From assembly GCA_965649765.1 (NCBI GenBank), contig OZ287756.1, forward strand, positions 63,860,001 to 63,924,000: DNA of 64,000 bases. The letters run 5' to 3'. The stretch comes from Bispira polyomma. Lineage: Eukaryota. Below, piece by piece: positions 24,130-52,410 of the stretch. The notes below the pieces were generated by a model. That model saw only the letters and a program-made list of their open reading frames with translations. It made no database searches and was not told where the DNA came from. Both the position numbers and the translations under genes were made by a program. The first letter of the stretch is position 1. Each line of letters opens with the position of its first letter.

Positions 24130-24563
24130 AGCAAACCAGATAAAAAATTTGTACCAGATTAGGCAGGTGCAAATACTACCCACTCATCAACCAGATAAGA
24201 GAAGCATACTCTGACATGACTAAATCTAAAAACCCAGTCGTTAATTTACCCAAACACATCACCTGTGAAATTAATAACATTATTTATTTCAAACACTGTA
24301 AAAAATGTGATAAAAATTATGTGGGTGAGACTGGATGAGAATTTAGAAAAAGAATGTATGAACATAGATTCTCAACTAGGAACACACCTGTTTCTAGACA
24401 TTTCACTTCAGATAATCACAATCACAGTCACATGAAATTTAGTGTGTTAGAATGGTGCAAACCAAAATTTAAGAATCATGAGACTAAACGCAGGAAGTTG
24501 GAACTCTTATGGATCTTTAAATTACACTGTTCAACACTATTAGGAATCAATCAATATGTCTAG
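24130..24563 (+). mobile_element. Penelope-like element GIY-YIG endonuclease fragment
   Basis: ITCEINNIIY..CKKCDKNYVGETG*EFRKRMYEH...PVSRHF..NH...RRKLELLWIFKL...GIN. Confidence 0.8.
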
Positions 24564-25737: not shown

Positions 25738-28700
25738 ATGAGTGAACCAGTGTATGTATTCCACAGGAAAAGTAGAGACATGGCATGTACGTCTAAGCGC
25801 CTGTGGCTAACAAGTTTTACACTTTCTACTATCCTTGTATTTATCTGGATATTTAGTCAAGGTAATTATGTCTGTTTGATAATAACCAAACTACAATTTC
25901 TTATTATGAAGCAAGTTGTGTCACAGCCATACACATTGTCGGTAATTTTATATGATTATTTATTTGTGGAGGCGATTCTTAAAGCGAAAAGTTTTCTTCT
26001 TGGGTAGAAAAATTTTAGGGCTGATGCAGTTGTCAGTTTTAGTAATAGTCGAATAAAAATCAAAATCAGTGCACTGACTTTACACATCCAAACTTGTGAT
26101 TGCAAATGACAATATTAACATAGTTGTTTAATAATCTACAGTTCTAAACTTCACTGGCTTCCTATTCACTGTAGAAAAATCCTGTTTAAAATGCATGTAA
26201 CCATTTTTAAAGCTGTTGTCTTTGATACCTGTGTATATACTATTGACTATTAATTTAGATGTAGAGATATATTAGTAGACTAGATCTTAATATGATCGTA
26301 TAATGAGGGGATATGTCCCTTTATCAGATTTCAGGCAAGCATGTACACAAGACTCAAAGTATGAGTACAAAACACCACTGTAGTCGTGACTTCATCTATA
26401 GTGTCCAGAACGTCTGTGTGATCAATCCCAAATATAGTTAGATAGCACAACATGAATAGTTCCAGAGACTTAACGAAAATTAAAATCACAAACAAAATAA
26501 AGTAAAAAATAAAAATGGCGGTGTCGCCCTTTGGACTTCAATACTAAAAGTGATATCCCAACAAAAACGGCGGGAAGACAGGGGTCAATTAGTGCAAAGT
26601 TCACCAATTAGCTTAGGGGTTAAGACCCTGGACTAAACAAATTACTGGCAGCACTGATCTAGCTAGCCCCTGCGGGTCTATCTCTCATAATAATACATAC
26701 ACTGTCTTTATTTAAATATTTTCTAATGGCCTTCCACAGGTTATTATTTGACAAAGTCCAACCATTAACATTTAATATTTTGGCTCCTGTGCGATATTCC
26801 ATTTAGGAGCTAGTGTAAAAGTGTACCAAAATTTAACTCTGCTAGACGTTCACCATGGGGTTTGGAGGACCTCAGAAAAACTCTTCGACATTCTCGGTGG
26901 TCCGTCAGGTTTCTCTTATTTCTTAAATGTAAAATTTTGTCGAAGACCGTCTCTAACACAATTTTACAAGTCTAGGGTATTAATTTCTACTAGTTAGCTG
27001 TTTGGCTCTAACTGTTTGCATATCTGGAATTCTAGCACCTTCCTGAATCAATGTTTTTCCAATTTTAATTATAAAACTAGAAATATTATTATATTTATTA
27101 AAAACATTTCATCAATTGTATCAATTTGGGTCCAAAATTTAATATTTTTCACAGCTTAATGCAAAAATCTACAATGCTGTCCATTGTTTTTTCAAAATCA
27201 ATATAAAGCAAAATTCCTTCTAAATTGTTTTGTTTTGTGTAGTCCATCAAATTTTGTATAATTTAGATACTATCAAATATATTGCTCTTTCTAACAAGCC
27301 ATGTTTAATCTTCATTGATAATATATGGCAAAACATTTTTCAGTTGTAAAAGGGTGCCTTTAATCTAATTTTTTATCTACATTTAATAACGAGATTGGAC
27401 GAAAATTTTATTTTTTTAGCCTTAGTCTTTTTTCAGTCAATGTAATAATAGCTTGACACAGCCACAGAAAGTTTACCATATTCAAATGCATAGTTTTACG
27501 AATCAGTACCACAAACTTTAGCCTAATTTACAACAAGGTGTGGCAATGGATTTTGCTCCAATTTGAGTTCAATTTCATTTAATTTTCTTATTAGTTCTGT
27601 TTCAGTGTTTGTAATTTTTTGTTTCTTTTTAGAGGTGTGATTTAGAGTAAACTTCCTGATTTCTTAGTTTATAATGTCCCACAAAATTCTATTATCTTCA
27701 ATGTTTTTGTACTTCTTACTCTACACATTTATAGCATTTGAAATCTGATTTATAAAGTCCCAATCATCCAATAAAGAACAAAGAACAATTGAACTTCCAA
27801 AATCCATTACCACCTTGTTTTTTCTACTATATCTTAAAGTTTCAATATTATAATCGAATGATCAGAAAAACACCAGATGTGATATCAACCATTGTAACTA
27901 TATCCTAAATATTGGTTTAGTTTAACCAGAAGTCTTACTTACATTGAATTATATGCCATTTTTGTCGCCATGTAAACCTTTTACTAACATGGTTTAATAT
28001 TCTCCAAATATCTTGCATGTCATATTGTACTTTAATTTTGTTGAAGAATTTAAGGGACCCTGTTTAGCTAAACATTTGCATGACATTACAATCACCTCCC
28101 AGTATAATTTTTTTATCTACATTTATATTTTGTATCTGGGAGGAAACACTGAAATCCTCCAAAATTAAACTTGATCCTTTTGCTTATCCGGGGCATATAT
28201 GTTGATTACAATACAATTTGTCATTTAAAGTCAAAACACATAAAATGAACCGTCCATCTTTATCTTCATAACAACTCTAAATTTCAACATCAATAACTCT
28301 TTTTAATAATACCATTACCCCTTTGCCATGATTTGTACCATGAGCATAAATGATATAATTACCCCATTCATTTGTCCATCTGAACTCAAAAGAACTTCTT
28401 CCTTATTGTAGGTTTCGTGAAGTAATATTACATCCAAATGTGTATCTTTTATAAATCTGATAACAGATTTCTTTTTAATTTAATCATTAATACTTTGTAC
28501 ATTTCATGACATGAATGAAATATCATAGGCAATTCCAATACACACAACACTAGTTTTATAAAACAATAGTTTAGTCCTGTACACAAATACACAGTACAAA
28601 ATACCACATATAAGTAGACCAAAAAAATTACAACAATAATATTTTTCAACCCTAAAAGTGAGGAGAAAAACCACCAAAAAACATATAACACAAAAGCCTG

Positions 28701-31700
28701 TTTTAAGAGGCTTCTGAGAACTTAAGTTCTTAATAAAAAATGTTCTCCATATATCAATAATTAAGTTTATGTTTAAATTATCTTTTTTATGTTAAATCTC
28801 AAATTCGCTTATCCTGAGATGATTTGAAGATAGTTCTAGTCAGATGTTATAAACATTAAAGTGGCTATTTACTTAACCTTTACTATTTCAAAAATGACCA
28901 CTGTATGTCTGTTTGTTGGAAGTATTGTTTTCAAAATTTTACAGTAAACATCTCTTATTGTAGTTTCTTTCGTTTATCCATAATTTTGATTACTCATGGT
29001 TATCTAATAAATTGTTCATAAGATAAATAACTATTTTGGGATATGTATTGTTCAAGAAAATGAATCTTTTTAAATTGTTGACATTTAAAAATTAAAAAAA
29101 AAACAATTCTGCATATTTGTGCCTAACATAACCTGCTTTTGTGTATGCTGTAACTTATCCCATTGGAATTGAATGCATCTGGCTATAGAAGTCAACAATT
29201 CACCAAAAGACTATTTTAAAACTTCATGATATTCCAATACATTCTGAATTTGGGTTTTAGGCATCCTACATACCCATCCGATACATTTAGTGGGATTTTT
29301 GCATGCACAACCAGAAAATAACGACATCCTTTATTCTGAATTTATTAACATAATTTGAGTGTGAAAACCCCCCATATACCACTACAGTAGTCTGTTATAG
29401 GTATGATGCCAATTTCATATAATTTGGAAAAAAAATTTAATCCAATATTTTCATATTGTTTAAATTTTGATATTAATCCACCTTGTGCTCGCCCACCAGT
29501 TACTGAGAGTTATTTTGAGTTACTTCATAATCTAGATTTTCATGCAAAGATACACCTATATACTTGTATAATTAACAATCTCAAGATTTGATGAACCGGT
29601 AACACATTTACAACAAGACTGTGGTTTTCGCTTTTACAGAAATGTACTATTTGACTTTTTGATTTGTTTATTAAGAAATGCCATTTTCACACCACTGATT
29701 CAGTTTAGTCAGTAAAAGCTGTAATTGTTCTTCGTTTAATTACAATCCCTAAGTCTTTTATAAAAATTCCAAACAATGCTGGGGACAAATTGTCACCTTG
29801 TATTAAACCTTAATTTACCACAAACCAGTTACTAAGTGAGTTGTTCAGCTTAATACAAGACTCATAACAATTATATAAAGAGTTAAATGCACAATACAAT
29901 TTACTTGTTATGTTATGGTTAAGAAGTTTGTACATTAACAAATCTTGGTTTACCCAGTCATTTTTTTTTTTTTTTTTTTGTTTTGCATAATAATGAAAGC
30001 AACAAATATATCTCTGTTATCATTTAATTGTCTTCTAATAATTTTACTAAGTGCTAAATTGTGATTTTCACAAGATTTACCTTTGCGGAATCCATTCTGC
30101 TCATTGCATAATAAGCCTACATTTTTGCAATAATTTATTAGAAGGTTATTCAATAATTATGAGTGTACTTTACTAACATGTGGAAGTAGCGAAACCCCTT
30201 TGTAAGAGGAAGGTGTGTACGGATATTTTAATGAACTTTTTAAAATGGGTGTTAGAATGGCCTTTGACCAATGTGATGGGACTTTACCACAGGAAAAGTT
30301 AAACGAAAAGTTGGCAGTGTTTATCTTTGAGAACTCTATTCTAGATTTGATCAAAACCACAACCCTTGTTCGTGTTTGATGTATCAATAACCTTTCTTAC
30401 CTCCTCATATGCCATATGTCACCATTTATGTATTTATTAGCATGATTGAAATTTACAGTGTTTTCCAAATTTATTTTATTATTTAACAGTGCAATGATAT
30501 TGTCACCTGTTGACAATAGTAAAACAAATGTATCAGAGACTTTTTATAAAGACAACATAACCAACACTTATCATTTGATTCAATCGTCATTTTATGTCAT
30601 AATTTTTTAGTTCCCAAGCAACTGTATATTACTTTGTATTGGAACCAAATATATGTGTTTTCAGTGACCACATTAAAGCAGGCTATAAATATCCAAATTC
30701 AACTCATTATTAATGTGCTCACGTTACACATGTGCATACCTTTTAATTAAAAAAATACAGTGTAGTTGTTTTGTTGTATTTTTTTCTGATGCAGATGGAA
30801 GCGAGTAGTGTGCAAATGTTATTCTGATTTTTTGTTATTTTTTAAAAGAATGTCTGAATCGTTTTTTATTTTTCCAATATATCATACTGTGTGTGATGGT
30901 ATAATTAACCCCTGATGGAGGGTTGCTACCCTCGCCATCCCAGGGTCTTTCAACTTTGTTGAAAAAGGTTAAATAAAAATCATATTGGGGAAAATCAAAA
31001 TTTAAAAAATCAAAAACAACACTGGACCATTTATACTTTTCTATCTCAATTACATGATCACTTGATCAATGAGTTTCAGTGCCCTAACAGTGAAGTTGGG
31101 AGTTGATTTGGAACACAATAAAAGAGGCAAAGTGGGGATATTAGTTTTAATGACTATATTAATCTCTAACATTTATTCATATACTGAGTAAAGGGGCCAC
31201 TCTAGCATTACGAGTTTAAGTGGATGAGATAAGGTGACCTTAAATTAAGGGACCGAAAAATTAAGTTAAAGATAAGGTGACTTTAAATTGTGAACAACTT
31301 AAGGTGACCATAAAATTTCGAAAAAGTAAGGTAGCCTAAACTTTACAATGAGGCTAGCTTAAAGTGTGTAAGATTTTGAATTTAAGGTGACCTTAACTTT
31401 TTGTTTAGGTTACCCTTAAGATTTGATAACAAGTTGTGAATTAAGTTCAAGGTTTAAAAGTAGAGTGGTAAGGTGGCCCCACACTTTATTATTTAGACAT
31501 TTAACAGTTGTATAATATATAGTAAGGAATAAATGTAAATAAAGAACCCCAAAGCCCAACTAGGTGGTAGTGGAGTGTGAAAGGAGAGTCTGGAAAGCCA
31601 AGACCACCTGCTGGGAAGCATTATGGTCTTGGATTATATATTTCCAGACGCAATCCGACGTCCAGGTGCCATAACTCTGTATATCTTGAATAGGGACATT

Positions 31701-34700
31701 ACTGTTGAAAGCGAGGGTGGCACCAGAACGTTGGAAGGTATGGAAGGTAATATTAGAATGTTGTAGTCCCAAACGCTGGAGTATGCTCGACAGGTTGGCT
31801 CGAACTCAAGTATCAGTCAATGGTATCCAGGTATTGTTCTTCTTAAACTGGAAAAGAGGGGAGTCTCTATGGCCTGGTGTAATGGCTAGGAAGGCCCTAA
31901 CTGCTGAAACTGGGCAGAGGGGGGAGGAAAGTAAGGCAGGAATTTTTATTACCTTGGCAGTATTTTTGGACTGCAGTGTCTTAGCCCACTTTATTATGAG
32001 GTGGAGGCCGGGAGGTGCGAAAATGACGTCACCTCTGGCCAATTGAACTAGGGGAGAAAAATGTGAAGCTGCATGGGGGACCAGCTTAGAGATCCTGAGG
32101 AAAGAGAAGAATGCTGTCAAATACAATGCCTTGAAAACCTGGCCCATGTACATTGTGTCACAGGATTGGATGATTTGGGTAAGAAGGGGGTATATCAATA
32201 ATTCTTTTTATTTTGCCCCTGAAGGGGCTATTAAGCAAGAGTGATTTTTGGTAATACCTGATTCTGGGGTCAGAGAAAGCAGAAACGTTTAGGCCAAATA
32301 ACGCCATCTTGGCTTTAATTGCAGAAAGGTAGTTTGAAATGGAGGAAGCAGAAGCGTGGTTAACCACTAGCGCTTCCAAAAATGATAATAATACAAGTGG
32401 GGAAATATGGTTGGTATTTATATGTGCAAAACAGCAATAAGCTAGGAAAATTCTAAACATGTTGGAATAGGCTTTCTCAGTGGAGGGTCTGAAGGCCTGG
32501 TGAGCCCTGTGTGATGCTTGCGGGGCTATCTGTCCGAGGTGAGAGGACACATCTACAATTAGATAGACCAATCTATTTTAAGCATACTATTACTGATTTT
32601 TACCCATTGTCGATTAGGGACTAGGCTTGTAAGTTTTTTATTTCTATCCTGGGTCAGTTTCCATCTGGACAGCAAATCTGCCACATGATTATCTCTACCC
32701 AGAATGTGAATGGTTCTTAAGCTGATGTCAACAGCAGCTATTTCCATAAAGATGTTTCTGGCTATAGCTGCGAGTGTTAAGTCTTTAGTTCTACCCGAAC
32801 CCAAGATTGTTACGACTGCTGCATTATCACACTGAATTACCAGTCTTTTGCCTGCCCATAGGGACTTCCAGGCCCGTACAGCTAATAATATGTTGAGCAT
32901 TTCTAAATGCACAATAATAAAGTCAAGGTAGCCCAGGGGAAGGGAATACTCATATACTTGGTCATTACACCTGCCCCCGAGTCCTTCAAGACAAGCATCC
33001 AATTGGATGCAGTCAGTGGTTGGGTCATGCTCGAAGAATGCAGTTCCATTGAACACAGGCAGAAATTTATTGAACCAGTTGATATCTTGTCTAAATTCAG
33101 TTGTGAGTGTGATTTTTTTGCTATTACCTGCTACTCTAAGGACGTCTAACATACGGTTTATGAAGACATGTGATACTCTGACACACTTTGAAACGTACAG
33201 TAGTTTACCTAGAAGTGATTGGAGTTCCCGTTTGGTACAACTTGGTTTTTTCTGCCAATCTTTAACTAGGGCGATGGTTTCTGCTAGTTTTTCTTGGGGC
33301 AGTGATACAGTAAAGTTTTCCGTGTCTACCAAGACCCCGAGACATGTAACTTTTGTACCAGGATATACTAGTTTCTTTTCACTTATTGCAAAACCTAGTT
33401 CTTGTAGCAAGTGGTGCAATGTATTAAATGAACGTCTGCTCTCTTGGGCGTTATCGTAACCGATTACGTCGTCTATGTAGTTAGTGACGTCATAACCCTG
33501 GGATTTCATAATGTATCTGACGCCATTGCTGAGGTGTTGAAAAATGGCCCTCCCATGACGAAATCCAAAGGGGAGGCAAGAGTCCACATAGTATTTGTCA
33601 AATTTGAGGCCTAGCAAGTGGAAGTCAGCGGGGTCCATCTTTACGTGACGGAACGCCCGACTGATGTCAATCTTATATATGTGAGTACCACGACCCAGGC
33701 GCCGAATTTTGCTGGTTACTGTGTCAATCGTGGGAAGTGTGAGTACAAAAGGTGTGTTTAAATATCTGTCCTTTGCTACAGTAGTGTTAACTGACTCACC
33801 GTGTGAATAACTTAAGTCAATAATAACCCGCCTGTGAGAGGCCCCCAGTTTTTCCCTCATCATAAATGGGGACACATGGAGGTTCTGTATGGGAGCATTA
33901 TCAAACGGCCCTAACATAGCCCCAAATTTAATTTCCTCTTTCAAATAGGCCTCAATGTCACTAGGGAAATCTACCGCTGATCTGTGGTTTTGTTCTACAT
34001 GGGAGAGAGGACTGTCTCGCTTAATGTCCATGGGGAAACCATATCTGACTAAAAAGGGTAGTTGGGAATCCCAATAATTATATTTTTTGAGGTATTTTTC
34101 CCAGACATCAGGTTTAAGTTCTGACTTGATCTCAATTTGAGGGCCTATAAAGTTGGGACATTTAGCTGAACTAATAATAGTATGTAACTCAATTAATGTA
34201 GCCTGTGAGGTAACCCCTTTATCTGACTGAAGAACCTCAATTTCACCTAATGGAATAAAGCCATACTTGTCTGTTGTCTGTGAATTCCATTGCTGGAATA
34301 TGGGGACATTATGGGCATCCCTTATAAGGTCCCTGTGTTTAGGTCTAAGTTGGAGTTCTAGATCATATTTGTCAGCCTCCAGTGTACTTGTTTTACCTAT
34401 GGGAGTTTTGGGTGAGCCCTTGCTTTTGCCTTAGCTGAGGCCTTTTGTTTCTTTCTCAGTATCAAGAGGTTTTGTTATGGGAATATTCCCATTGTCAATT
34501 ACACCATGTCCCACAGAAAGAGGGGAAAACCTATTGTATGCGGGGACAAAATCTTTGGCACCTTCTCGCAGGTGTGAAACAGGAGGAGGAGGCTTTGTAT
34601 AATAATGTGTTTTCACACCTTTTCCCCCATCCCCATTACTGCAAGTTTTTGTTGCTTTTCCCATACTGACAGATTTCACACCAATTATAGGGGAAGGGAC

Positions 34701-37700
34701 AATGGTACGTGATTTACCCCTAGCAACCACTTTGATTACCTGTTTGCTGACAGAGCTGTCAGACTGTCCTGAAAGGTTGGTAAAACATGCATGGTTAATA
34801 CTTTTTTGTGAAACAGTACTGTTTTTCATTGTTACATTACACATAGGAAATTTCACATTTTGGTTAGTATCTGAGTCGTGTGCACTGGGGGACATGTGTT
34901 TTCCCTGATTTTGTTTTGATTTACCATTTTTTAAAATGTCCGCACAGGATTTTTTTTTTAACCGAGCCCAGTCTGTCCTCCAGTGCGCACTGGCTTGAAT
35001 GTTAGCAAAAGTGTTATATACAATTCTACCATGAAATTGTTTTTCACTATACCTCTCAGTACAAAGTTCATTGTTCATTGTTTTATCATTGAAAACTATG
35101 TTTTCACTCCACCTCGTGCTTTTGTCAGAATAACCTTAATCACTATGACTTGATAAGGGCACTGCATTGCTGCAGTGCCTTACTCGTTTTTTGCATTTGT
35201 TCTGCAATCCTTTGCAGGGTGGGGAAACGACCGCCCATTCAATATACAATTACTACACACATGCAGATAAGTGGTTCTTTTAGTTTCATGGTCCCCTTTT
35301 TGGGGGCAAGTACACTTTTGGAAGAACCTGCATGGAGTACCCTTGTCATGACTTTTCCTGGAGGGGCCTTGTGTTTGACTAGAGTTTTGGCTGGAATTAA
35401 TTACCCGCCTAATTCTGTCGAGTTTATGGGACTCGTCCCATGACACCTTCCCCTCTTCCATTTTACAGGATAGAACTGAAATAAAACTGACTTTACACAT
35501 CCAAACTTGTGATTGCAAATGACAATATTAAAATAGTTGTTTAATAATCTACAGTTCTAAACTTCACTGGCTTCCTATTCACTGTAGAAAAATCCTGTTT
35601 AAAATGCATGTAACCATTTTTAAAGCTGTTGTCTCTCAACAGCCTCACTACCTCGCTACTTAGCTCTCCTTCAGCAGCCTTAAAAGGGGAAAAAGACTCT
35701 GTTTCCTCTAAAAACACACCAAGAGGGTTGGATTTAGAGCCTTCTCAGTCGTCGCCCCTATGTTATAAAACAGTCTTCCAGTTGAACTCAGACTGCTCAA
35801 TACACTTTCTGGTTTTAGGAAAAGGCTTTAACCTATCTCTTCAGGCTCGCCTATCCGCTGTAGTCCTTCTCTTAGGCGTTGACGCATCCATCCTTACGAC
35901 CTGGATATGTTTTTTCATATTTCTATTGGCTGATTGATTCTGATGTTGCACCGTGGAAGATACCTAGCATCAATAAGGCGCGTTAAAAATGCACAGTACA
36001 ATACAATACAATAGAAAAGTTAGCTTTGCAGTCTGGTAACTGAGGTGTTATATGTCAGTAGATAGACATATATCAGCAGACACTTGCTATCTGGGGTACT
36101 AGGTTTGTGCTCTTATCTATCATTTCTGCAAGGAAGAACAATCACTTTACGTAACCTTTAACCTATAAACTTTGGTCTTTAAAAAGTTCAAGCAATGTCA
36201 AAATGCTGTGAGTGTGTCCGTCAAACTTTTATGTTTATCTATCTTGCTCAACAAAAATTTCAACTCATTTGATTTAAAAACTTACAACATCTAATATAGA
36301 CTAGTTATGCATCTGCAAGTTTTAATATCCAACTTGTTTAGTTATGCTTTTCTTTTTTATCATGTTAAAATGAACATTAAAACTGCATTAACAAAACAGT
36401 AATATAGAGTAAAAAATCCTGGGGATGTTAGTTGCTGTCAATTTCACTACAAATATAAAATTATATACTAGTTAATGTGTACAATTTCCCATATATTCCA
36501 CAGAGTCCCAATGGCTGTCAGAAGAACACAAGATCTGGCGGTTACTGAATTTCTCAGTACATGAAACCTTTACAGGTGACAGTTTATCTATATGTTTTGG
36601 CTCCTCTACTACATCTATACAAAGTGTATTCTTACATAAGATTGTACTTTAACTTGATTTTAATGTTGCTATCAGGAATGTATATTGTGACTAGCAATTG
36701 TACTAATTTAGAGGATTTTACATAAATATTTTGACACTGGATCAAATAACACAAAGCAAAAGAAACGATAAAACAATGCTTTTCTATTGAATAGTTTAAT
36801 TTTTATTTTATGCACAAGCAGACACTTGGGTCCACATAATGAAATATTCCATTCATCTGACCAATTTATTTATGTCACCGGGAACGTTCAGATAACATTA
36901 TGATTCTACACATAGTAAATGGTTTCAGAACATAAAAAGCAACAAATCGTACACAGACTTTAACCATTAAAAATATTTTAACATTGAAAATGTTATTATA
37001 CTTCTATTTTAAGAATAATATTTAATGGATATTGTTGTGTTTCAGAATGTATAATTTTCAATTTGACATTGCTCAAATATAGCATAGAAATTTTACTAAA
37101 ATGGTGATAAAAAAGTAATTGCAATAACAGTCGTATAAAAGAAAAAATGTTGATCACTTATCTTTTTTTTTTCTTCTTTTTTTTTTGTGAGCACAATAAG
37201 TTTATTTCCATTTATATATATACAGAGTGTAAAGATTTTACATACATTTTATACAAAATATAAAATGTAAATATACTAACTGCATTTCCTCTTCATTTTT
37301 GTAAAGAATTTATTACTTTTTATTTTTATTTTCTTTCTCTACAATTTATCGTAATTTATAGTTGGAATACTGTTTAAGTGAGCATATAGATCTAAACCTA
37401 GAAGTTTGAATTCACATGTTGTGAATATTATATTAATATTAGATGAATTGATATACTAGCTACACAATACAACACCTAAAAGAAATCAGCCCAGCATAGA
37501 TTTAACAAGAGCTCATTTACAAGTCAGTAGCTTTTCATTTATAAACTCTTTATGATGTAATTTAGGAGACCACTTACTCTATGATAGTTTGAAACAGTGT
37601 CAATTAGGTCCATAAGTTGACATTGGTAATCGTCACCAATCAGCCAATTTTTTTAAAAAAATAAACATTTATTATATAAAAGTTATACAAAATGTACGTA

Positions 37701-43700: not shown

Positions 43701-46091
43701 TTTTCCTGGAATTTTCGGTCCTACTCTGTGAACCCTTTCGAATGTTCTGTCATTTACACAATATATCAAGGGTTTCAGCAAGTTAACGAGAGTGTCTTCA
43801 CAACATTCTTGCGCACTTTCTTGGATGCCAAAGAAACGGAGGTTATTTTTTCTTTGGTGGGTTTTGTTTTTGAGAAGTCTTCTTCGTAAGGCAGTATTTT
43901 CTTTTTGTAAGGATTCTACCTGTTCAGATAAGGTCTTCATGGACGGAATGAAGACACCCTGTTCTAGTTTATCAAACCGTTTACTGAGGGGCTCTATAAT
44001 GTCATGATTTGATTCCTTAATTTCCTCTTTAAGAGTGTCAACTGCTTTCTTTATGGAAGTATTGATTAAGGACAAAATTTCACTGGAGGTGTAATTGGCC
44101 ACTGGGCTTTTGTCTACTTCCTCGAATTTCCTCACTTTACTTGTTACTGGGGTTGACATGTTTGTTTACACTTGTGCACAGTACAGTGTATGGCTGATCA
44201 CTTATCTTTTACTATTTTTATTGTGTACATTGTTGTAGACATCTACCCAGAAATAATTTTATTTATATACATTTTAACAGTGGAACAATATTCGTTTACC
44301 ATTGCAAATATTGTACTACATGATATAATTATGTCATACCTCTTTTTATTGTTGTCTCTTGGCCATTTAGATGATAATGAATTCATTCAAAAAGCCAGAG
44401 CCGAGAGGTTACAAACATTTTGTAAGAAGTGGAGTGCTGACCATACAAACAATAAGTCTACACTAGCTGAGAAGAATGTAATGATTGATGACACAAACAA
44501 GATCTTATTATTGTCCATTCCCAAAACAGGCTGTACAGTGTGGAGGTGGACCATCTACAACAGCACAGCCAAAGTGACAACAGATTTTGAAGATGGTCAA
44601 AAGCTCCATTTTATTCACACCAAAAGTTTTCTGCGGTCTCAAGGCTTCCGAATATTCCTCAAGATGCCAGAACAAGAAAAGACTAAACTGCTAGACCATT
44701 ACTTTACGATTTTAACTGTGAGACATCCTCTCGACAGACTAGAATCGGCCTATGTTGATAAGTTTGTTAACCACAGAAGTGAAAATGAAAATTTTCGGGC
44801 AGCAGTAATACAACACAAGATGAATAGTGAAGGTCAGTTGGATAACTCCAAAGTAGACCTGACTATAAATGTTACTTTTGAGGACTTCTTGTCATATGTT
44901 CTGGTCAGCTTTAATGGTCACTGGAACAGTGTCATGAATCTAGCCATGCCTTGTATGGTAAACTACAAGTAAGTAATCCTCTATTTTACCACTAATAAGT
45001 AGGGTTGTTGGCAATATCTTTTAAAACTGTGTTAAGTATTTGAATCCCAAAGTGTAAAAATCTATTGTTCTTGCCTCTAATGTTAGAACTGCTGGCGACA
45101 TGTGGTCTTTGTGTCAGTTATTCTACAGCTTTAATGGACATTCAACAAAAAATTTAGAAAATATGTAGAGGAATGTAATATAAAGCTGATTTGAAAGTAG
45201 AGATAAACACCAACAGTTAACGTGTTTTACACATAATCACAATATGAGTATACTTATTTCTATTATGAATAACGATTTACAAATATACACCAATTGAGTC
45301 CTACATTTTGTGGAATGTTACTGCTATTCCTTGGCATAAATATTTTCCTATTACAAAAGATTGCATCTCATCTAAACCATAGTGTTATTTGTGACCTATT
45401 TTTAGTGATACAGTATTTATCATTTCTCTGGTTAGTTCTTGAATTGGCAGTAATATTTCTAAGTCACTGTCTCTTTTTTAAAAATCTCTTAAAGGTTAAA
45501 TTACTACTGCACTAAACTCATTTTACATACTTTCGGCAAATTGTTTGTGTTACTGACCTGTAATCTTTTCCAGTGTTCCCTAAACATTAAAAAAATGTAA
45601 TAGACTACTAGGGCTTATCTTTTGGTGTCCACTTTTACTACATTGCTCAACGGGTAAACAAACTGGTATTTATAACCCCTTTATGTTCAGGTAATTTTTT
45701 GTGATGTACTATTGATTTATACAAATCCTAAACCACTCTTTCAAGTGAAAATTTTATCTAATGCTCTGTGTTGTTTAAATATGAATATTCCAGATATATC
45801 TCCAAGACAGAGACCTTGAATAACGACCTTGAATACATTATAAGATCCAGACTTTCTGGAAATGGGCAACCTCAATCCTTCAACACCAACCGAGACTCCA
45901 GTCCAATTACCCTCCACCAAGGCAGACTTTTGACTGTGTTCTCTGAGCTTAAAGATCCACAGAAGTGGATTAAGCAATTAATGGATATTTTCCAGGATGA
46001 CATGAACATGTTTGGATATTCATATTCAGTACAGAAAGGCAAGGTGTATGCACACTGCACTTCATATTACAAAGAGACTATTTGTATTTGA
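25738..46091 (+). CDS. Carbohydrate sulfotransferase (Sulfotransfer_2), paralog 3, ~363 aa, with transposon-expanded introns
   Basis: Predicted exons 25738-25861 (TM; homologous to 2481-2589), 36504-36575 (homologous to 3312-3383), 44371-44968, 45794-46091. Exon lengths 72/598/298 match paralog 1. Motifs SIPKTGCTVWR and VRHPLDRLESAYVDK. Confidence 0.85.
26073..26221 (+). repeat. 149-bp direct repeat, left copy
   Basis: Matches 35486-35634 with one visible mismatch. Confidence 0.95.
27020..28480 (-). mobile_element. Degraded L1/Tx1 ORF2 (endonuclease plus RT start); inverted copy of ~47540-49000
   Basis: AHGTNHGKGV, DKDGRFIL, IILGGDCN, GFWKFNCS, RPISLLNVDKK, YIDFEK. Confidence 0.75.
29211..30420 (-). 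mobile_element. Degraded non-LTR RT region of the LINE that hosts the family A YR element
   Basis: VPSHWSKAILTPILK, YKGVSLL, EQNGFRKGKSCENH, QGDNLSPALF, DYCSGIWG. Confidence 0.75.
31560..32571 (-). pseudogene. Tyrosine recombinase of family A, copy 1 (frameshift plus stop)
   Basis: FLRISKL, KWAKT, HTFQRSGAT, GTWTSDCVWKY. Confidence 0.88.
32559..35078 (-). pseudogene. Pol (RT-RNase H) of the family A element, ~840 codons with one premature TAA at 34431-34433
   Basis: ORFs 34431-35078 and 32559-34031 share a frame and the 133 intervening codons are open. RT motifs RVIIDLS, KIDISRAFRH, LPFGFRHG, YIDD; RNase H motifs LDAC, HLEMLN, CDN, NHVADLLSR. Confidence 0.88.
35486..35634 (+). repeat. 149-bp direct repeat, right copy
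   Basis: Matches 26073-26221. Confidence 0.95.
35550..36012 (+). mobile_element. 5'-truncated L2 LINE with (TACAA)n tail; a related tail lies at 57005-57080 (-)
   Basis: LHWLPIHCR..LFKMHVTIFKAVVSQQPHYL...GFRAFSVVAP...NSLP...YLFRLAYP; tail gcatcaataaggcgcgttaaaaatgca. Confidence 0.8.
38132..41777 (-). pseudogene. L1/Tx1 ORF2 (APE endonuclease, RT, CCHC domain), broken into three ORFs
   Basis: CLQDTH, NLYAPN, GDFN, RLDYF, SDHS; PGIDG, WRPISLL, DFEKAFD, QGDPVSP, YADD; CSFCKSLPETIIHLFAEC. Frameshifts near 39500 and 39170. Confidence 0.92.
42906..44159 (-). CDS. LINE ORF1p (coiled coil, RRM, CTD) fused to a C-terminal NADAR/YbiA-like domain, 417 aa
   Basis: ORF1 motifs RKNNLRFFGIQE, FERVHRVG..RPILAK, DDF...NRRRL, LLILNG. 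NADAR motifs from ~aa 265: FFG.DSPLSNHHP, EQYLMIEKA..F.D, P..QKRLGK, SKFTQN..L...LLKTG, AEASPTDNFWG, WKGKNIMG. Confidence 0.88.
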   Translation of the reverse strand: MSTPVTSKVRKFEEVDKSPVANYTSSEILSLINTSIKKAVDTLKEEIKESNHDIIEPLSKRFDKLEQGVFIPSMKTLSEQVESLQKENTALRRRLLKNKTHQRKNNLRFFGIQESAQECCEDTLVNLLKPLIYCVNDRTFERVHRVGPKIPGKTRPILAKVHHFKDKIKITSLRNLQYNASRVTTADDFQLETDQNRRRLYPIYRAALKHLQNPSNPRHRPNVKLVGDLLILNGEKFTVEYIGKLPSVLQPTSICTPSQNEITAFFGCDSPLSNHHPCKFKVNGELFNCIEQYLMIEKARVFDDQESVTLLVQEQDPVKQKRLGKQIHGYNKGVWLERSEEIAYKGLKSKFTQNDALAKALLKTGSTVIAEASPTDNFWGCRFSLRDSELWDQAKWKGKNIMGKLIMGRIREEIKTN

Positions 46092-46157
46092 AGAGATAGA
46101 TTATATATGTCTCAATAGAGTCAATTTCTTAGCTGTAGGCAATCTGTTTTAAAATTT

Positions 46158-46162
<5 letters not shown>

Positions 46163-46198
<36 letters not shown>
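46163..46198. repeat. (TA)n microsatellite just downstream of paralog 3
   Basis: Directly visible. Confidence 0.9.
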
Positions 46199-46201
<3 letters not shown>

Positions 46202-47539
46202 TGCAAAGATAAAAATGATCATAAAAGATGGATTTCAATACATACGTTGATTTGTCAGAGGTATTTTGTATGTAGTGTCAATTTTCATGGTAACCTGCTC
46301 TTCTGCAGAGACAACCTGGGTAAACGTTTAATGAACTTGATGTTTCTGTTATGTAATTGACTTACTTAGCAATAACCACGATCTGTGTTTGGCCTGAACC
46401 TGGGATAAAAACATGGTGATTCACTGTAGTAGGGTCCTGTTCCCATGGCATTCTGTGGGTACTACAAGAACAACCTAATGCAGATTAAATTTCATTTAGG
46501 TTTTTCTGGTTGGTTGAAATGGTTGTCTAATCACTCAGTTGCCATTTCATCAGTTCTAGTTCATGTATGCTTCTAGGGATTCAATTACAAGGTCGGATAT
46601 TATCAATCTTAATACATGTAGTTAAAACAAGTAACTTTTTTACTTAATACAAATTTTGATTTGAAGTCACAAATACTAGAATGAATATTTTCAAAAGTTT
46701 GAAACAGACATACATTATAGATACTTCCCTTTCTGGAACATATACTGCCTTCAAAATGAAAAACTAAATTAAGTAACGACATTGTTTTTTAAAATAAAGG
46801 TATTGACTCTTTTGGTGAATTGTTGACTTCTATAGCCAGATGCATTCAATTCCAATGGGACAAAGTTACAGCATACACAAAAGCAGGTTATGTTAGGCAC
46901 AAATGTGCAGAATTGTTTTTTTTTTAATTTTTAAATGTCAACAATTTAAAAAGATTCATTTTCCCGAACAATACTTATCCCAAAATAGTTATTTATCTTT
47001 ATGAACAATTTATTAGATAACCATGAGTAATCAAAATTATGGATAAACGAAAGAAACTACAATAAGAGATGTTTACTGTAAAATTTTTAAAACAGTACTT
47101 CCAACAAACAGACATACAGTTGTCATTTTTGAAATAGTAAAGGTTAAGTAAATAGCCACTTTAATGTTTATAACATCTGACTAGAACTATCTTCAAATCA
47201 TCTCAGGATAAGCGAATTTGAGATTTAACATAAAAAAGATAATTTAAACATAAACTTAATTATTGATATATGGAGAACATTTTTTATTAAGAACTTAAGT
47301 TCTCAGAAGCCTCTTAAAACAGGCTTTTGTGTTATATGTTTTTTGGTGGTTTTTCTCCTCACTTTTAGGGTTGAAAAATATTATTGTTGTAATTTTTTTG
47401 GTCTACTTATATGTGGTATTTTGTACTGTGTATTTGTGTACAGGACTAAATTATTGTTTTATAAAACTAGTGTTGTGTGTATTGGAATTGCCTATGACAT
47501 TTCATTCATGTCATGAAATGTACAAAGTATTAATGATTA

Positions 47540-49000
47540 AATTAAAAAGAAATCTGTTATCAGATTTATAAAAGATACACATTTGGATGTAATATTACTT
47601 CATGAAACCTACAATAAGGAAGAAGTTCTTTTGAGTTCAGATGGACAAATGAATGGGGTAATTATATCATTTATGCTCATGGTACAAATCATGGCAAAGG
47701 GGTAATGGTATTATTAAAAAGAGTTATTGATGTTGAAATTTAGAGTTGTTATGAAGATAAAGATGGACGGTTCATTTTATGTGTTTTAACTTTAAATGAC
47801 AAATTATATTGTTATCAACATACATGCCCCGGATAAGCAAAAGGATCAAGTTTAATTTTGAAGGATTTCAGTGTTTCCCCCCAGATACAAAATATAAATG
47901 TAGATAAAAAAATTATACTGGGAGGTGATTGTAATGTCATGCAAATGTTTAGCTAAACAGGGTCCCTTGAATTCTTCAACAAAATTAAAGTACAATATGA
48001 CATGCAAGATATTTGGAGACTATTAAACCATGTTAGTAAAGGGTTTACATGGCGACAAAAATGGCCTATAATTCAATGTAAGTAAGACTTCTGGTTAAAC
48101 TAAACCAATATTTAGGATATAGTTACAATGGTTGATATCACATATGGTGTTTTTCTGATCATTCGATTATAATAATTGAAACTTTAAGATATAGTAGAAA
48201 AAACAAGGTGGTAATGGATTTTGGAAGTTCAATTGTTCTTTGTTCTTTATTGGATGATTGGGACTTTATAAATCAGATTTCAAATGCTATAAATGTGTAG
48301 AGTAAGAAGTACAAAAACATTGAAGATAATAGAATTTTGTGGGACATTATAAACTAAGAAATCAGGAAGTTTACTCTAAATCAAACCTCTAAAAAGAAAC
48401 AAAAAATTACAAACACTGAAACAGAACTAATAAGAAAATTAAATGAAATTGAACTCAAATTGGAGCAAAATCCATTGCCACACCTTGTTGTAAATTAGGC
48501 TAAAGTTTGTGGTACTGATTCGTAAAACTATGCATTTGAATATGGTAAACTTTCTGTGGCTGTGTCAAGCTATTATTACATTGACTGAAAAAAGACTAAG
48601 ACTAAAAAAATAAAATTTTCGTCCAATCTCGTTATTAAATGTAGATAAAAAATTAGATTAAAGGCACCCTTTTACAACTGAAAAATGTTTTGCCATATAT
48701 TATCAATGAAGATTAAACATGGCTTGTTAGAAAGAGCAATATATTTGATAGTATCTAAATTATACAAAATTTGATGGACTACACAAAACAAAACAATTTA
48801 GAAGGAATTTTGCTTTATATTGATTTTGAAAAAACAATGGACAGCATTGTAGATTTTTGCATTAAGCTGTGAAAAATATTAAATTTTGGACCCAAATTGA
48901 TACAATGGATGAAATGTTTTTAATAAATATAATAATATTTCTAGTTTTATAATTAAAATTGGAAAAACATTGATTCAGGAAGGTGCTAGAATTCCAGATA
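47540..49000 (+). mobile_element. Degraded L1/Tx1 ORF2 fragment (donor copy)
   Basis: Same endonuclease and RT remnants as 27020-28480. Confidence 0.75.
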
Positions 49001-49831
49001 TGCAAACAGTTAGGGCCAAACAGCTAACTAGTAGAAATTGATACCCTGGACTTGTAAAATTGTGTTAGAGACAATCTTTGACAAAATTTTACATTTAAGA
49101 AATAAAAGAAACCTGACTGACCACCGAGAATTTCGAAGAGTTTTTCTGAGGTCCTCCAAACCCCATGGTGAACGTCTAGCAGAGTTAAATTTTGGTACAC
49201 TTTTACACTAGCTCCTAAATGGAATATCGCACAAGAGCCAAAATATTAAATGTTAATGGTTGGACTTTGTCAAATAATAACCTGTGGAAGGCCATTAGAA
49301 AATATTTAAATAAAGACAGTGTATGTATTATTATGAGAGATAGACCCGCAAGGGCTAGCCAGATCAGTGCTGCCAGTAATTTGTTTAGTCCAGGGTCTTA
49401 ACCCCTAAGCTAATTGGTGAACTTTGCACTAATTGACCCCTGTCTTCCCGCCGTTTTTGTTGGGATATCACTTTTAGTATTGAAGTCCAAAGGGCGACAC
49501 CGCCATTTTTATTTTTTACTTTATTTTGTTTGTGATTTTAATTTTCGTTAAGTCTCTGGAACTATTCATGTTGTGCTATCTAACTATATTTGGGATTGAT
49601 CACACAGACGTTCTGGACACTATAGATGAAGTCACGACTACAGTGGTGTTTTGTACTCATACTTTGAGTCTTGTGTATATGCTTGCTTGAAATCTGATAA
49701 AGGGACATATCCCCTCATTATACTAGCATATTAAGATCTAGTCTACTAATATATCTCTACATCTAAATTAATAGTCAATAGTATATACACAGGTATCAAA
49801 ACGCGAGTGTTTTTATATTATTCAAAGAAAA

Positions 49832-50695
49832 ATGGCTCCGAGAAAAACATATGATTGCCTTAAATGTGGCACAAACCATCAGAAACCTATCGACAGTAAC
49901 TGTAAATTAGCTACACTGCTTGCTGACGACGAGGATGTGCCGAACTCTGCTTCGACTAGTGAAAATCAAAGTCCTGGTGATATTAATATCCAGATACTAA
50001 ATGAACTACGTGCTCTAAGTGGTCGAATGACCAAAGTGGAACGCCAGGTAATTCACAGTCAGCATGGAGCCCCGACTTCTCCAAGTCGGGGGACATCTGT
50101 AATGACCAGTCCTGCACCCCGACCTGCTGCACTGCTGCCTGATCCGGAAGATGTCCTCGTACCCACCATAGACACACTTAGATCCTCACAGAGCCTACAG
50201 ACTGCCGTGGACACACGTCTCAAGGAGTTAGCTATGATAAATGAGACAGGTACGTTCAAGTCCCAGAGGGGGGGTAGTGATACGGTCTGGGTGAGGAAAC
50301 TGGTCCCTTGGCAACAGAACTTTATTCTAGGTGGACATAGTAAATCTAGTCTCTCGTATGACTCATTAACAATGCCCCAATGGGTCGCTGGTTTTTCAAA
50401 CATCATTAGAGAAGAAAGTAATGTTGCAACCAAAAATTTAATGTATTTATCAGACCTCATGGAGGACGCTCATGACTTCTCCTGGAGTGTGGCCAAGGGA
50501 AGTCATGCAGTTCTATCCTGTAAAATGGAAGAGGGGAAGGTGTCATGGGACGAATCCCATAAACTTGACAGAATTAGGCGGACTCATGCCCAGAGGGTAA
50601 CTAATTCCAGCCAAAACTCTAGTCAAACACAAGGCCGCTCCAGGAAAGTCATGACACGGAAAACTTTACTGTATCACTGCCCCAAGAAAAACTAG
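49832..50695 (+). CDS. Gag-like ORF1 of the family A element (C-terminus lost by deletion)
   Basis: N-terminal C-x2-C-x3-H-x6-C, FKSQRGG, W.QNFIL, QWVAGF..II, YLSDLMEDAHDFSW..AK..HAVL; homologous to 61694-62464. Confidence 0.8.
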   Translation: MAPRKTYDCLKCGTNHQKPIDSNCKLATLLADDEDVPNSASTSENQSPGDINIQILNELRALSGRMTKVERQVIHSQHGAPTSPSRGTSVMTSPAPRPAALLPDPEDVLVPTIDTLRSSQSLQTAVDTRLKELAMINETGTFKSQRGGSDTVWVRKLVPWQQNFILGGHSKSSLSYDSLTMPQWVAGFSNIIREESNVATKNLMYLSDLMEDAHDFSWSVAKGSHAVLSCKMEEGKVSWDESHKLDRIRRTHAQRVTNSSQNSSQTQGRSRKVMTRKTLLYHCPKKN

Positions 50696-51407
50696 CAGAA
50701 ACCATCTCCCTAGTTAAAGATTGGCAGAAAAAACCAAGTTGTACCAAACGGGAACTCCAATCACTTCTAGGTAAACTACTGTATGTTTCAAAGTGTGTCA
50801 GAGTATCACGTGTCTTCATAAACCGTATGTTAGACGTCCTTAGAGTAGCAGGTAATAGCAAAAAAATCACACTCACAACTGAATTTAGACAAGATATCAA
50901 CTGGTTCAATAAATTTCTGCCTGTGTTCAATGGAACTGCATTCTTCGAGCATGACCCAACCACTGACTGCATCCAATTGGATGCTTGTCTTGAAGGACTC
51001 GGGGGCAGGTGTAATGACCAAGTATATGAGTATTCCCTTCCCCTGGGCTACCTTGACTTTATTATTGTGCATTTAGAAATGCTCAACATATTATTAGCTG
51101 TACGGGCCTGGAAGTCCCTATGGGCAGGCAAAAGACTGGTAATTCAGTGTGATAATGCAGCAGTCGTAACAATCTTGGGTTCGGGTAGAACTAAAGACTT
51201 AACACTCGCAGCTATAGCCAGAAACATCTTTATGGAAATAGCTGCTGTTGACATCAGCTTAAGAACCATTCACATTCTAGGTAGAGATAATCATGTGGCA
51301 GATTTGCTGTCCAGATGGAAACTGACCCAGGATAGAAATAAAAAACTTACAAGCCTAGTCCCTAATCGACAATGGGTAAAAGTCAGTAATAGTATGCTTA
51401 AAATAGA

Positions 51408-52410
51408 TTGGTCTATCTAATTGTAGATGTGCCCTCTCACTTCAGACAGATAGCCACGCAAGCATCACACAGGGCTCACCAGGCCTTTAGACCCTCCACT
51501 GACAAAGCCTATTCCAACATGTTTAGAATTTTCCTAGCTTATTGCTGTTTTGCACATATAAATACCAACCATATTTCCCCACTTGTATTATTATCATTTT
51601 TGGAAGTGCTAGTGGTTAACCACGCTTCTGCTTCCTCCATTTCAAACTACCTTTCTGCAATTAAAGCCAAGATGGTGTTATTCGGCCTAAACGTTTCTGC
51701 TTTCTCTGACCCCAGAATCAGGTATTACCAAAAATCACTCTTGCTTAATAGCCCCTTCAGGGCCAAAATAAAAAGAATTATTGATATACCCCTTCTTACC
51801 CAAATCATCGAATCCTGTGACACAATGTACATGGGCCAGGTCTTCAAGGCATTGTATTTGACAGCATTCTTCTCTTTCCTCAGGATCTCTAAGCTGGTCC
51901 CCCATGCAGCTTCACATTTTTCTCCCCTAGTTCAATTGGCCAGAGGTGACGTCATTTTCGCACCTCCACCTCATAATAAAGTGGACTAAGACACTGCAGT
52001 CCAAAAATACTGCCAAGGTAATAAAAGTTCCTACCTTACTTTCCTCCCCCCTCTGCCCAGTTTCAGCAGTTAGGGCCTTGCTAGCCATTACACCAGACCA
52101 TAAAGACTCCCCTCTTTTCCAGTTTAAGAAGAACAATACCTGGATACCATTGACTGATACTTGAGTTCGAGCCAACCTGTCGAGCATACTCCAACGCTTG
52201 GGACTACAACATTCTAATATTACCTTCCATACCTTCCTACGTTCTGGTGCCACCCTCGCTTTCAACAGTAATGTCCCTATTCAAGATATACAGAGTCATG
52301 GCACCTGGACGTCGGATTGCGTCTGGAAATATATAACCCAAGACCATAATGCTTCCCAGCAGGTGGTCTTGGCTTTCCAGACCCTCCTTTCACACTCCAC
52401 TACCACCTAG
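51408..52410 (+). pseudogene. Tyrosine recombinase of family A, copy 2 (disrupted)
   Basis: FLRISKL, HTFLRSGAT, HGTWTSDCVWKY; contains a frameshift and a TGA shared with copy 1. Confidence 0.88.

Follow-up and report, generated by a model that had tools for sequence, protein, structure and literature searches.

An inverted, permuted 9.3-kb copy of neighbouring DNA in a sulfotransferase gene intron: a repair scar that does not by itself prove a DNA circle

Overview

The first intron of an intact sulfotransferase gene carries an insert of 9,257 bp, which is an inverted, order-swapped copy of a neighbouring stretch and consists of a block A' followed by a block B', flanked by direct repeats of 149 bp. 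The analysed DNA is a single stretch of 64 kb (the window), to which all coordinates refer (Table 1). The insert is a known kind of DNA-repair scar, whose formation may, but need not, involve a DNA circle. Tentatively, local copy-repair at a staggered break, involving no free circle, is favoured here over the capture of such a circle; the permutation does not prove that a circle existed.

Anatomy of the insert and its host gene

The inverted, permuted structure and its coordinates, as well as the direct repeats and the filler, were all recovered by self-BLAST and global alignments. A chance origin is excluded by the self-BLAST E-values (0.0 for three long blocks and 9e-71 for the direct repeat). 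The preliminary description of a 9.3-kb duplication was right in structure, but the two donor pieces sum to 6.4 kb, as 2.9 kb of insert-only sequence had been overlooked. In A', Tx1-type matches mark an APE-RT fragment of Tx1/L1 type that has decayed; the block also holds the 5' end region of a YR element, which is similar to the corresponding region of a second YR element. B' (29211-35478) runs along the donor from 53892 down to 50508. Its second part comprises an RT-RNase H end, a tyrosine recombinase frame, a YR 3' region and a Tx1-type zf-RVT remnant. An ORF with RVT_1 (32559-34430) overlaps the insert-only block of 2,014 bp, across which relatives align in one piece. The two direct repeats differ at one of their 149 bases.

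The pre-insertion allele is defined by the tail of a LINE ORF2 that reads across 35634/35635, as had been proposed: query residues 6-97 match relatives as one stretch, and a relative within the window (23624-23779) also spans this point. The sequence labelled 'L2' matches the C-terminus of LINE ORF2 proteins, and a motif in the remnant suggests, more tentatively, that it is L2-like. A perfect palindrome close to the start of the duplicated target was noticed post hoc, and 0.47% of the window positions lie within 2 bases of the centre of such a palindrome.

The host gene belongs to the Sulfotransfer_2 family, with a frame of 349 codons that is open over four exons and introns that are all GT-AG. 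Exons 1-4 follow one another in order, with no inversion of the middle segment. A paralog that shares the same four exons confirms that the insert lies within a gene intron; intron 1 measures 10,642 bp in the host gene versus 722 bp in the paralog.

Table 1. Positions of the insert, its junctions, the host gene and the donor locus in the window
Feature	Positions	Strand	Remarks
Exon 1 of host gene (start codon, membrane anchor)	25780..25861	+	matches paralog exon 2508-2589
Perfect palindrome, 12 bp	26066..26077	.	centre 1 base from start of duplicated target
T1, left copy of duplicated target	26073..26221	+	junction J1 at end, 1-bp microhomology
A', inverted copy of donor 46808-49799	26222..29210	-	41/2,989 aligned bases differ
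J2, inner junction, donor 46808 to donor 53892	29210..29211	.	blunt
B' part 3, LINE RT, common with donor 53484-53892	29211..29621	-	7/409 differ; ends at J2
LINE RT block, 886 bp, insert-only	29622..30507	-	P0272 residues 560-830 match here only
B' part 2, common with donor 50653-53464	30508..33326	-	49/2,810 differ
YR block (gag end, ORF2 start, RT), 2,014 bp, insert-only	33327..35340	-
B' part 1, gag middle	35341..35478	-	abrupt start at donor 50508
Filler at outer junction J3, 7 bp	35479..35485	.
T2, right copy of duplicated target	35486..35634	+
LINE ORF2 C-terminal remnant	35556..35831	+	reads through 35634/35635
Exon 2 of host gene	36504..36575	+
Exon 3 of host gene	44371..44968	+	Pfam Sulfotransfer_2 E 2e-19
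Exon 4 of host gene	45794..46092	+
Donor block A	46808..49799	+
X, donor stretch not copied, 708 bp	49800..50507	+	single copy in window
Donor block B	50508..53892	+	two later or allelic deletions
Host LINE beyond copied unit	53893..54259	+

Donor locus, direction of copying and age

The direction from donor to insert is fixed by three frames (LINE, gag and LINE tail) that are cut at the insert junctions and continue at the donor or target, by which the ancestral and the derived copy can be distinguished; the polarity proposed earlier is thereby upheld. The locus is identified as the donor because its host LINE carries on past 53892, again as first described: residues 832-1076 of relative P0272 align to 53537-54259 in one HSP (E 3e-34), while at the J2 side of the insert the match ends at residue 954. 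A first query with the LINE stretch across 53892 found no homolog among 167 candidates; a second LINE query gave one match among 68, and the relative then settled the continuation. At the other end of the unit, the gag frame (49775-50695) continues through X, which holds 32 bp upstream of the gag ATG (49832) and the N-terminal part of gag. Relative P0052 matches from residue 1 at the donor, but only from residue 48 at B' part 1. The length of X agrees with the loss of about 0.7 kb at reopening that had been noted.

The present donor lacks 2.9 kb of the insert (YR reverse transcriptase and LINE RT), and neither insert-only block has a second near-identical copy within the 64-kb window. Relatives show that these blocks are deletions on the donor side, of which the one of 2,014 bp occurred at a 4-bp microhomology and the one of 886 bp left about 20 bp of filler (53465-53483). 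The source was therefore an older or allelic version of about 10 kb. The distance between donor and target is 11.2-18.3 kb.

A and B are equally diverged (41/2,989 versus 56/3,219; Fisher p 0.26), which supports the earlier reading of a single-event permuted duplication and leaves two separate insertions of different age unsupported. The body differs at 97 of 6,208 bases (1.56%; 60 transitions to 37 transversions), a rate that leaves out the 138-base block 35341-35478 with its 5 mismatches. Comparing the divergence of the direct repeats with that of the body, a check proposed beforehand, does not discriminate (1/149 versus 97/6,208; P(at most 1) = 0.32). Decay has been neutral, with a pN/pS of 0.78 in B' part 2 (8 synonymous and 21 non-synonymous differences) that does not differ from neutrality (p 0.51); the RT-RH tail alone gives 0.44, on 5 differences. 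Two independent insertions of an active YR family were rejected on the shared flanks and the near-neutral pN/pS. CpG enrichment was discarded as proof of real mutation, as the 19 of 97 substitutions that touch a CpG in either copy are about the counting expectation.

Junctions

J1 and J3 are inverted and J2 is not, all within 28 kb and with two copies. J1 has a single base of microhomology and no similarity nearby. J2 is indeed blunt at base level, as described before. Even so, the two donor ends have a 10-mer in common nearby, which stops 1 base short of the B end and is found again 11 bases upstream of where A begins (p 0.008-0.010, post hoc; nothing with 15-base flanks). Besides its filler, J3 shows in-register similarity over the break, with 10 of 11 bases common to donor and target (p 0.006-0.008, post hoc; a longest-common-substring comparison with 25-base flanks showed nothing). 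The longest shared words within 25 bases are 5, 10 and 6 bases at J1, J2 and J3, respectively. The differences closest to J2 lie 14 bases away on the B side and 54 bases away on the A side. The window is gap-free, with no N, and the 30-mer over J2 is unique in it; neither a tandem remnant nor a second J2 was found within the 64 kb, nor a poly(A) tail at J1 or J3.

Four other origins or signals were set aside on these junctions. A back-spliced RNA would fit the minus-strand GT after the A end; against it stand the lack of a tail and the position of the closest AG ahead of the B start, which misses by one base. A Helitron circle would fit the AG/TC junction, but the LINE frame runs through 53892. 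The L1-endonuclease-like TTTTAAA near the junctions has 96 occurrences in the window. Finally, LINE-mediated transduction by target-primed reverse transcription was rejected given the missing poly(A) tail, the 149-bp repeat and the same-orientation permutation.

Routes to a permuted copy

Under the model that is tentatively favoured, a single local germline repair event would have copied about 9.3 kb of the neighbouring stretch of about 10 kb into intron 1. We infer the staggered break, the template use and the order of events as follows. A staggered break at the target, or else the end of a re-replicated fork, would have left both ends with the 149-bp segment T. These ends may have engaged the donor 11-14 kb off, at points separated by 708 bp and in diverging directions, the first copying 3.0 kb leftwards (A') and the second 6.3 kb rightwards (B'), after which the two newly made ends would have been joined at J2. 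The template would have been an older or allelic donor form that still held the blocks of 2,014 and 886 bp. Alternatively, one polymerase with three template switches could have made the identical product; template switching, which gives this product be it two-ended or serial, had been allowed for at the outset as an alternative to a circle. A single free-jumping polymerase would, however, have a chance of only 3-14% (six assumed length distributions) of ending at most 708 bp from its first landing, whereas two ends that were held together would account for the closeness of 49800 and 50508.

Several published patterns agree with such copying. A 'cycle of templated insertions' (PMC7025897) is defined by a re-replicated target and a string of templates that leads back to the host, which describes the T-A'-B'-T string with its retained donor. 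Local templates with inverted and non-inverted junctions are the 'local n-jumps' of the same study, matched here by a cluster of one non-inverted and two inverted junctions with a low copy gain. Those cycles are somatic events of human tumours with templates typically on different chromosomes, whereas the present insert is aged (1.56%), apparently heritable and built from two back-to-back neighbouring templates. Two-donor repair duplications by two-ended strand invasion are known in the germline: PMC2671141 reports 20 of them among 1,136 insertions, five having their two donors separated by 289-3,432 bp, and places 824 of the 1,136 donors no more than 5 kb from the target. The chimeric duplications in this study, attributed to two-ended SDSA, resemble the insert in their position in a transposon remnant near the donor, their closely spaced donor pieces, their scars (microhomology, filler, target duplication) and the lack of a poly(A) tail. 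They are far smaller (at most 619 bp, with donors within 5 kb and target duplications of 4-21 nt, versus 9,257 bp, 11.2 kb and 149 bp here), and diverging two-ended copying on the present scale was not found described in the literature searched. Local copy-repair further gains from the equal divergence of A and B, from the in-register homeology with filler at J3 and from the shared 10-mer near J2, even though these junction statistics are post hoc; J1, with its single base, is weak as a priming site. The donor distance also sets the insert apart from the 16 human circle-type pairs, which lie 0.09-58 Mb apart or on other chromosomes. Nonetheless, a broken circle captured by end joining yields the same letters.

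Such a free circle is a possible origin, albeit one we regard with more doubt. A piece of 9,965 bp from the sister chromatid or homolog would have been excised, closed at J2 and captured in the intron; the circle would have broken in X, with 708 bp lost by resection or a later junction deletion, and would have been end-joined into a staggered break. Circle-mediated duplications are called from a flipped order of blocks that keep one orientation (PMC7450558, PMC7188851 and, for tilapia vasa, PMC3245284), and with them the insert also shares blunt fused donor ends (0-2 bp at the closing junctions in PMC7450558), the lack of long junction homology, breakpoints in unrelated repeats and a non-tandem site. 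Cattle KIT Cs29/Cs6, as cited in this literature, belongs to the same group. A circle would directly explain why 49800 and 50508 are so close, for which the chance is otherwise 3-14%; the absence of a tandem remnant and of a second J2 in the window fits as well. Deletions of kilobase size, of which the donor has two, are common here, so that the gap could be secondary. Permutation had been put forward as the signature of a circle, a view that the literature backs (PMC7450558, PMC7188851), but the clean opening and target that go with it are not seen: resolved human cases gain or lose 1-27 bp at both sites (PMC7450558), compared to 708 bp lost and 149 bp duplicated here. The insert is also small (10 kb, versus 22-3,918 kb in PMC7450558 and about 20-130 kb in PMC7188851) and near (11 kb, versus at least 0.09 Mb in PMC7450558), and landing 11 kb from the source demands a tight coupling to the donor that is inherent to templated repair. 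The insert also sits in an invertebrate-type genome, and a physical circle cannot be seen in an assembly.

The outer junctions also admit an inversion-haplotype reading, which is absent from the preliminary description: J1 and J3, the latter as its reverse complement, coincide exactly with both breakpoints of an inversion of about 14 kb comprising T, the intron with exons 2-4, and A. A staggered break would have duplicated T, with X being lost; the window would then follow the inversion haplotype forward to 46808, pass J2, continue along the same haplotype backward from 53892 and, somewhere within 35635-46807, change over to the standard haplotype. This follows logically from the junctions, and the 1.56% divergence and the two large indels would become allelic differences. 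Drosophila commonly shows staggered-break inversions accompanied by inverted duplications (17/29; PMC1885836), where the breakpoints and the duplicated segment correspond to J1, J3 and T; here, however, the middle segment is not inverted and there is a third junction, J2. B' moreover ends just 409 bp past the last large indel, and the direct repeats show a lower divergence (1/149) than the body, a difference that is not significant. Molluscs are reported to have widespread hemizygous regions, which is relevant only if the DNA comes from a mollusc. Overall, we consider an inversion or haplotype chimera unlikely. The version in which J2 is an assembly join at a heterozygous inversion is improbable: the window has no N, differences approach J2 to within 14 (B) and 54 (A) bases, so the arms have no long identical ends, and the shared 10-mer (p about 0.01) hints at a biological join. 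The version in which J2 is a real rescue join is more improbable still, as it requires three rare steps. An inversion haplotype would also break the gene, which is intact here.

Very unlikely, too, is that a tandem donor duplication or third copy already held the 53892/46808 junction and that 9.3 kb across it was copied into the intron. Tandem sources are the main false positive for circle signatures (PMC7188851), and the present donor haplotype is demonstrably not the source; yet no tandem remnant lies beside the donor, J2 occurs once in 64 kb, and the copied length would have to fall just below one unit by coincidence.

The YR element as cargo

In the cargo element, a gag-like frame is followed by an RT/RNase H frame and then by a recombinase-like one, as in DIRS-order YR retrotransposons. 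RVT_1 scores above the cut-off and an integrase SAM-like domain below it (E 6.5e-4); a tyrosine recombinase is presumed from its catalytic motifs. The element has 458 relatives, the best being 56% identical, and Rfam gives 0 matches in 25000-56000. DIRS-order elements are marked by inverted terminal repeats with an ICR, or by split direct repeats (PMC6681497); no 5'-3' repeat above shuffled scores was found in this element, the ends of which may be decayed. Since the element accounts for 56% or more of the copied unit, both cuts are internal to it (its 5' region reaches at least 49329 and gag reads through 50508) and J2 lies outside it, in LINE and unique DNA, its link to the opening is probably a coincidence, as had been suspected, and the element is probably incidental cargo. 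Nor is the inserted unit bounded by YR termini.

It is highly improbable that proteins of the element itself produced the intermediate or opened it, taking the flanks along. Both outer donor ends do fall in the element, one of them lying 32 bp ahead of the start of gag. A lone in-frame stop interrupts ORF2 in the insert, which implies that the family was intact until recently, and circular double-stranded intermediates have been proposed for DIRS elements. Recombinase integration is expected to be conservative, however, unlike the loss of 708 bp and duplication of 149 bp observed, and by eye both copies lack a catalytic-motif residue kept by the neighbouring YR element at 57327-58124; the element's share of the unit and the positions of the cuts and of J2 also speak against it. 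DIRS-1 has a single-stranded cDNA that is for the most part linear, and no amplification of circle junctions was obtained (PMC7192593). Hardly more credible is that a recently active YR retrotransposon nicked or opened the DNA at its own gag start and moved itself with kilobases of flank, permuted, into the neighbouring intron; no description of YR-driven flank transduction was found in the literature searched.

Implications

As the class is known, one further case changes little. The value of this insert is that of a fully base-resolved example from an apparent invertebrate germline, with scars that lie between three described classes; a non-exhaustive literature search yielded no comparable invertebrate germline case. 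A permuted copy should not be read as proof of a circle, because two-ended copying, a broken circle and an inversion haplotype with one join leave identical letters. Should the allele be real, it offers a natural reporter: recombining the 149-bp direct repeats would bring back the empty intron and free a circle of 9.4 kb, and a crossover involving the two inverted 3-kb copies would reverse exons 2-4 and thereby knock out the sulfotransferase gene.

Anatomy of the insert

Self-comparison recovered all the blocks of the preliminary description (see table). Inverted copies (A' and B') of two donor blocks (A and B) lie between two copies of a 149-bp target segment (T) that differ by 1/149 mismatch, while 708 bp of the donor (X) are absent from the copy. 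Three junctions have to be accounted for: the outer junction T|A' (J1), the inner junction 29210|29211 (J2) and the outer junction with the filler (J3). Each occurs once in the window, which contains 0 N; the target ends are separated by 149 bp and the outer donor ends by 708 bp.

Coordinates of the insert and its donor
Feature	Position	Description
T, left copy	26073-26221	From self-comparison of the window
A'	26222-29210	Plus-strand reading is the reverse complement of donor 46808-49799
B'	29211-35478	Reverse complement of donor, 53892 descending to 50508
Filler		7 bp between the end of B' (35478) and the right T
T, right copy	35486-35634	
Other sequence between right T and donor		11.2 kb
Donor A, X and B	46808-53892	

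Donor and insert differ by 97 substitutions in 6,208 bases outside the 138-base block 35341-35478 (1.56%; 60 transitions and 37 transversions), with 41/2,989 in block A and 56/3,219 in block B (Fisher p 0.26). The longest identical tract, 50810-51279 (469 bp; P 0.048), might stem from gene conversion of one inverted copy by the other, or from chance.

J1 shows a microhomology of 1 base and no further similarity. J2 is blunt, and a 10-base word that stops 1 base short of the end of B is also present 11 bases upstream of the start of A (GC-matched p 0.008-0.010 with 25-base flanks; undetected with 15-base flanks). Next to the 7-base filler of J3, donor and target match in register at 10 of 11 bases over the break (p 0.006-0.008; 0.04-0.07 when register is not required, and 0.39 by longest word with 25-base flanks). 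T starts 1 base off the centre of a 12-bp palindrome; 0.47% of window positions come within 2 bases of such a centre. The junction and palindrome tests were chosen post hoc, and their results are suggestive only.

Donor, target and host gene

Three frames that are interrupted in the insert are continuous at the donor or the target. The host LINE does continue beyond 53892, as had been described: a LINE ORF2 relative (P0272) spans 53537-54259 in one HSP, and at J2 its match ends at residue 954. The gag-like frame 49775-50695 is uninterrupted at 50508, and a gag-like relative (P0052) matches the donor from residue 1 and the insert from residue 48. The LINE remnant said to run on past T is likewise borne out, as its ORF2 C-terminus begins inside T and reads across 35634|35635; a 105-residue query aligns as a single stretch over its residues 6-97 (2,258 matches, the long ones bearing RVT_1), and a relative within the window, 23624-23779, covers the equivalent point. 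This tail is presumably L2, a name based on a motif.

The reported 9.3-kb duplication holds for the insert (9,257 bp) but not for its donor, whose pieces total just 6.4 kb. For two blocks of the insert, 33327-35340 (2,014 bp) and 29622-30507 (886 bp), the window contains no second near-identical copy. Donor and insert contain a tyrosine-recombinase (DIRS-order) retrotransposon, the YR element, whose ORF2 relatives number 458 among 7,999 candidates scored. These relatives (six of 120 fetched proteins tried) align unbroken over insert 34373-32562, and their donor match starts at about residue 574; for residues 560-830 of P0272 the match is confined to the insert. Judging by these alignments, both blocks are native portions of the elements containing them. 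Because relatives align to both, the donor haplotype shown carries a deletion at a 4-bp microhomology and another with ~20 bp of filler. The copied unit spanned ~9,965 bp at the time of the event, and its template was an older or allelic donor form.

The insert lies in intron 1 of a Sulfotransfer_2 member with four exons, GT-AG introns and a 349-codon open frame, whose protein shares 239 of 349 residues with a paralog at 2508-5070. Intron 1 measures 10,642 bp, versus 722 bp in that paralog. Since the host exons are colinear, the stretch separating the inverted copies keeps its original orientation. No gene was gained or broken by the insert. The YR frames common to both copies differ by 8 synonymous and 21 non-synonymous changes (pN/pS 0.78; p 0.51), a seemingly neutral divergence that would be expected of a segment copy and not of two insertions by an active family. 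The window holds three Sulfotransfer_2 paralogs, at 2508-5070 (+), 8668-11140 (-) and 25780-46092 (+); open four-exon frames are present in the two checked, and the start of exon 3 has a degenerate duplicate at ~3643-3792.

Alternatively, J1 together with J3 read in reverse complement could mark both breakpoints of a ~14-kb inversion that comprised T, exons 2-4 and A, duplicated T and removed X; such an inversion would belong to the staggered-break type described in PMC1885836. The window would then follow the inversion haplotype forward, pass J2, follow the same haplotype backward and switch to the standard haplotype, so that the 1.56% divergence and both indels become allelic and J2 is the sole extra join, biological or assembler-made. 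Yet the window has no gap, differences come as close to J2 as 14 bases on the B side and 54 on the A side, a 10-mer is shared near the junction and the host gene is intact, and we regard such an inversion as improbable. A tandem array, named in PMC7188851 as a false positive for circle signatures, could also have been present before copying; it has left no trace within the window and is very unlikely.

Mechanism of duplication

For a single, freely jumping polymerase, the chance of the 708-bp closeness is 3-14% under six assumed length distributions; the outer donor ends were therefore presumably held together by something. A cut circle would do so, and two-ended invasion equally. In the latter, the two break ends would enter the nearby donor in diverging orientation and copy 3.0 and 6.3 kb, after which the newly made ends would be joined; long staggered break ends would yield the target duplication at no extra step. 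Such copy-repair, templated at a break without a free circle, is our tentative preference, held with somewhat less than even confidence. The excised and reintegrated circle proposed previously is a possible but weaker candidate, ranked lower because of proximity and scar size. The 16 human circle-type pairs characterised in PMC7450558 are 22-3,918 kb long and at least 0.09 Mb apart, with scars of 1-27 bp where resolved, and its authors invoke MMBIR for the insertion step. The insert behaves like circle-type duplications but without their clean scars. Among the repair duplications of PMC2671141, the donor lies within 5 kb in 824 of 1,136, two-donor chimeras occur (n = 20) and the proximal class reaches at most 619 bp. 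The structure of the insert agrees with the descriptions in PMC7025897 of "cycles", template strings re-replicating a host segment (1,467 seen), and of local clusters or "n-jumps".

The YR element makes up at least 56% of the copied unit. From 49329 on, the 5' region of the element is similar to the corresponding part of a second YR element (score 71 versus 40 for the best shuffle). Position 49800, 32 bp upstream of the gag ATG, therefore falls inside the element, as does 50508. A search for its terminal repeats, which would have assigned it to one of the subgroups defined in PMC6681497, found none scoring above shuffles. DIRS-1 cDNA is described in PMC7192593 as single-stranded and mostly linear, with a circle junction that could not be amplified, although a short-lived circle is nonetheless entertained there. 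The earlier caution that the opening inside the YR element may be coincidence was well placed, as a causal role of the element is scarcely credible.

Other elements in the window

The YR element sits between the APE-RT and zf-RVT fragments of a Tx1-type LINE (47500-48960 and 53300-53464), the middle of which is missing. Four near-palindromic 20-bp motifs cluster in its 3' non-coding region (52572-52744 and 31227-31399), resemble motifs at ~19880-20040 and could be recombinase or replication sites. Two further YR retrotransposons, ~16600-20200 (+) and 57327-62608 (-), and a recombinase remnant, 100-720 (+), are present. The former lacks gag and the RT start and carries a 24-bp tandem array (16963-17108) and a ~90-bp direct repeat (17220-17310/20066-20152; score 71 versus 38 for the best shuffle), the repeat possibly being left over from split direct repeats. 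A decayed frame at ~24230-24560 (+), read by eye, resembles what we take to be the GIY-YIG endonuclease of Penelope-like elements. A palindromic MITE-like element of ~244 bp (23367-23610) adjoins the LINE-tail relative at 23624 and has a partial second copy at 12111-12258 (88%). A DDE_Tnp_4 transposase remnant at 15022-15333 (-) falls just under the cut-off (E 2.5e-5), with weak similarity to it at ~55476-55970. Intron 2 of the host gene harbours a near-full Tx1/L1-type LINE, 38132-44165 (-), whose ORF1 (42909-44165) has a terminal NADAR domain (E 1e-37), known in Tx1 ORF1 from Pacific oyster families (PMC12477816). Mollusca is the commonest taxon in three of the five Atlas rows listed.

Precedents

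Established cases of permuted duplication come from yeast, tilapia (PMC3245284), cattle (Durkin et al., via a citing paper) and human and other mammals (10.1101/2022.06.22.497135); no invertebrate case was found in the open-access literature searched. The insert in Bispira polyomma looks like a real and well-resolved further case of this already known kind of duplication.
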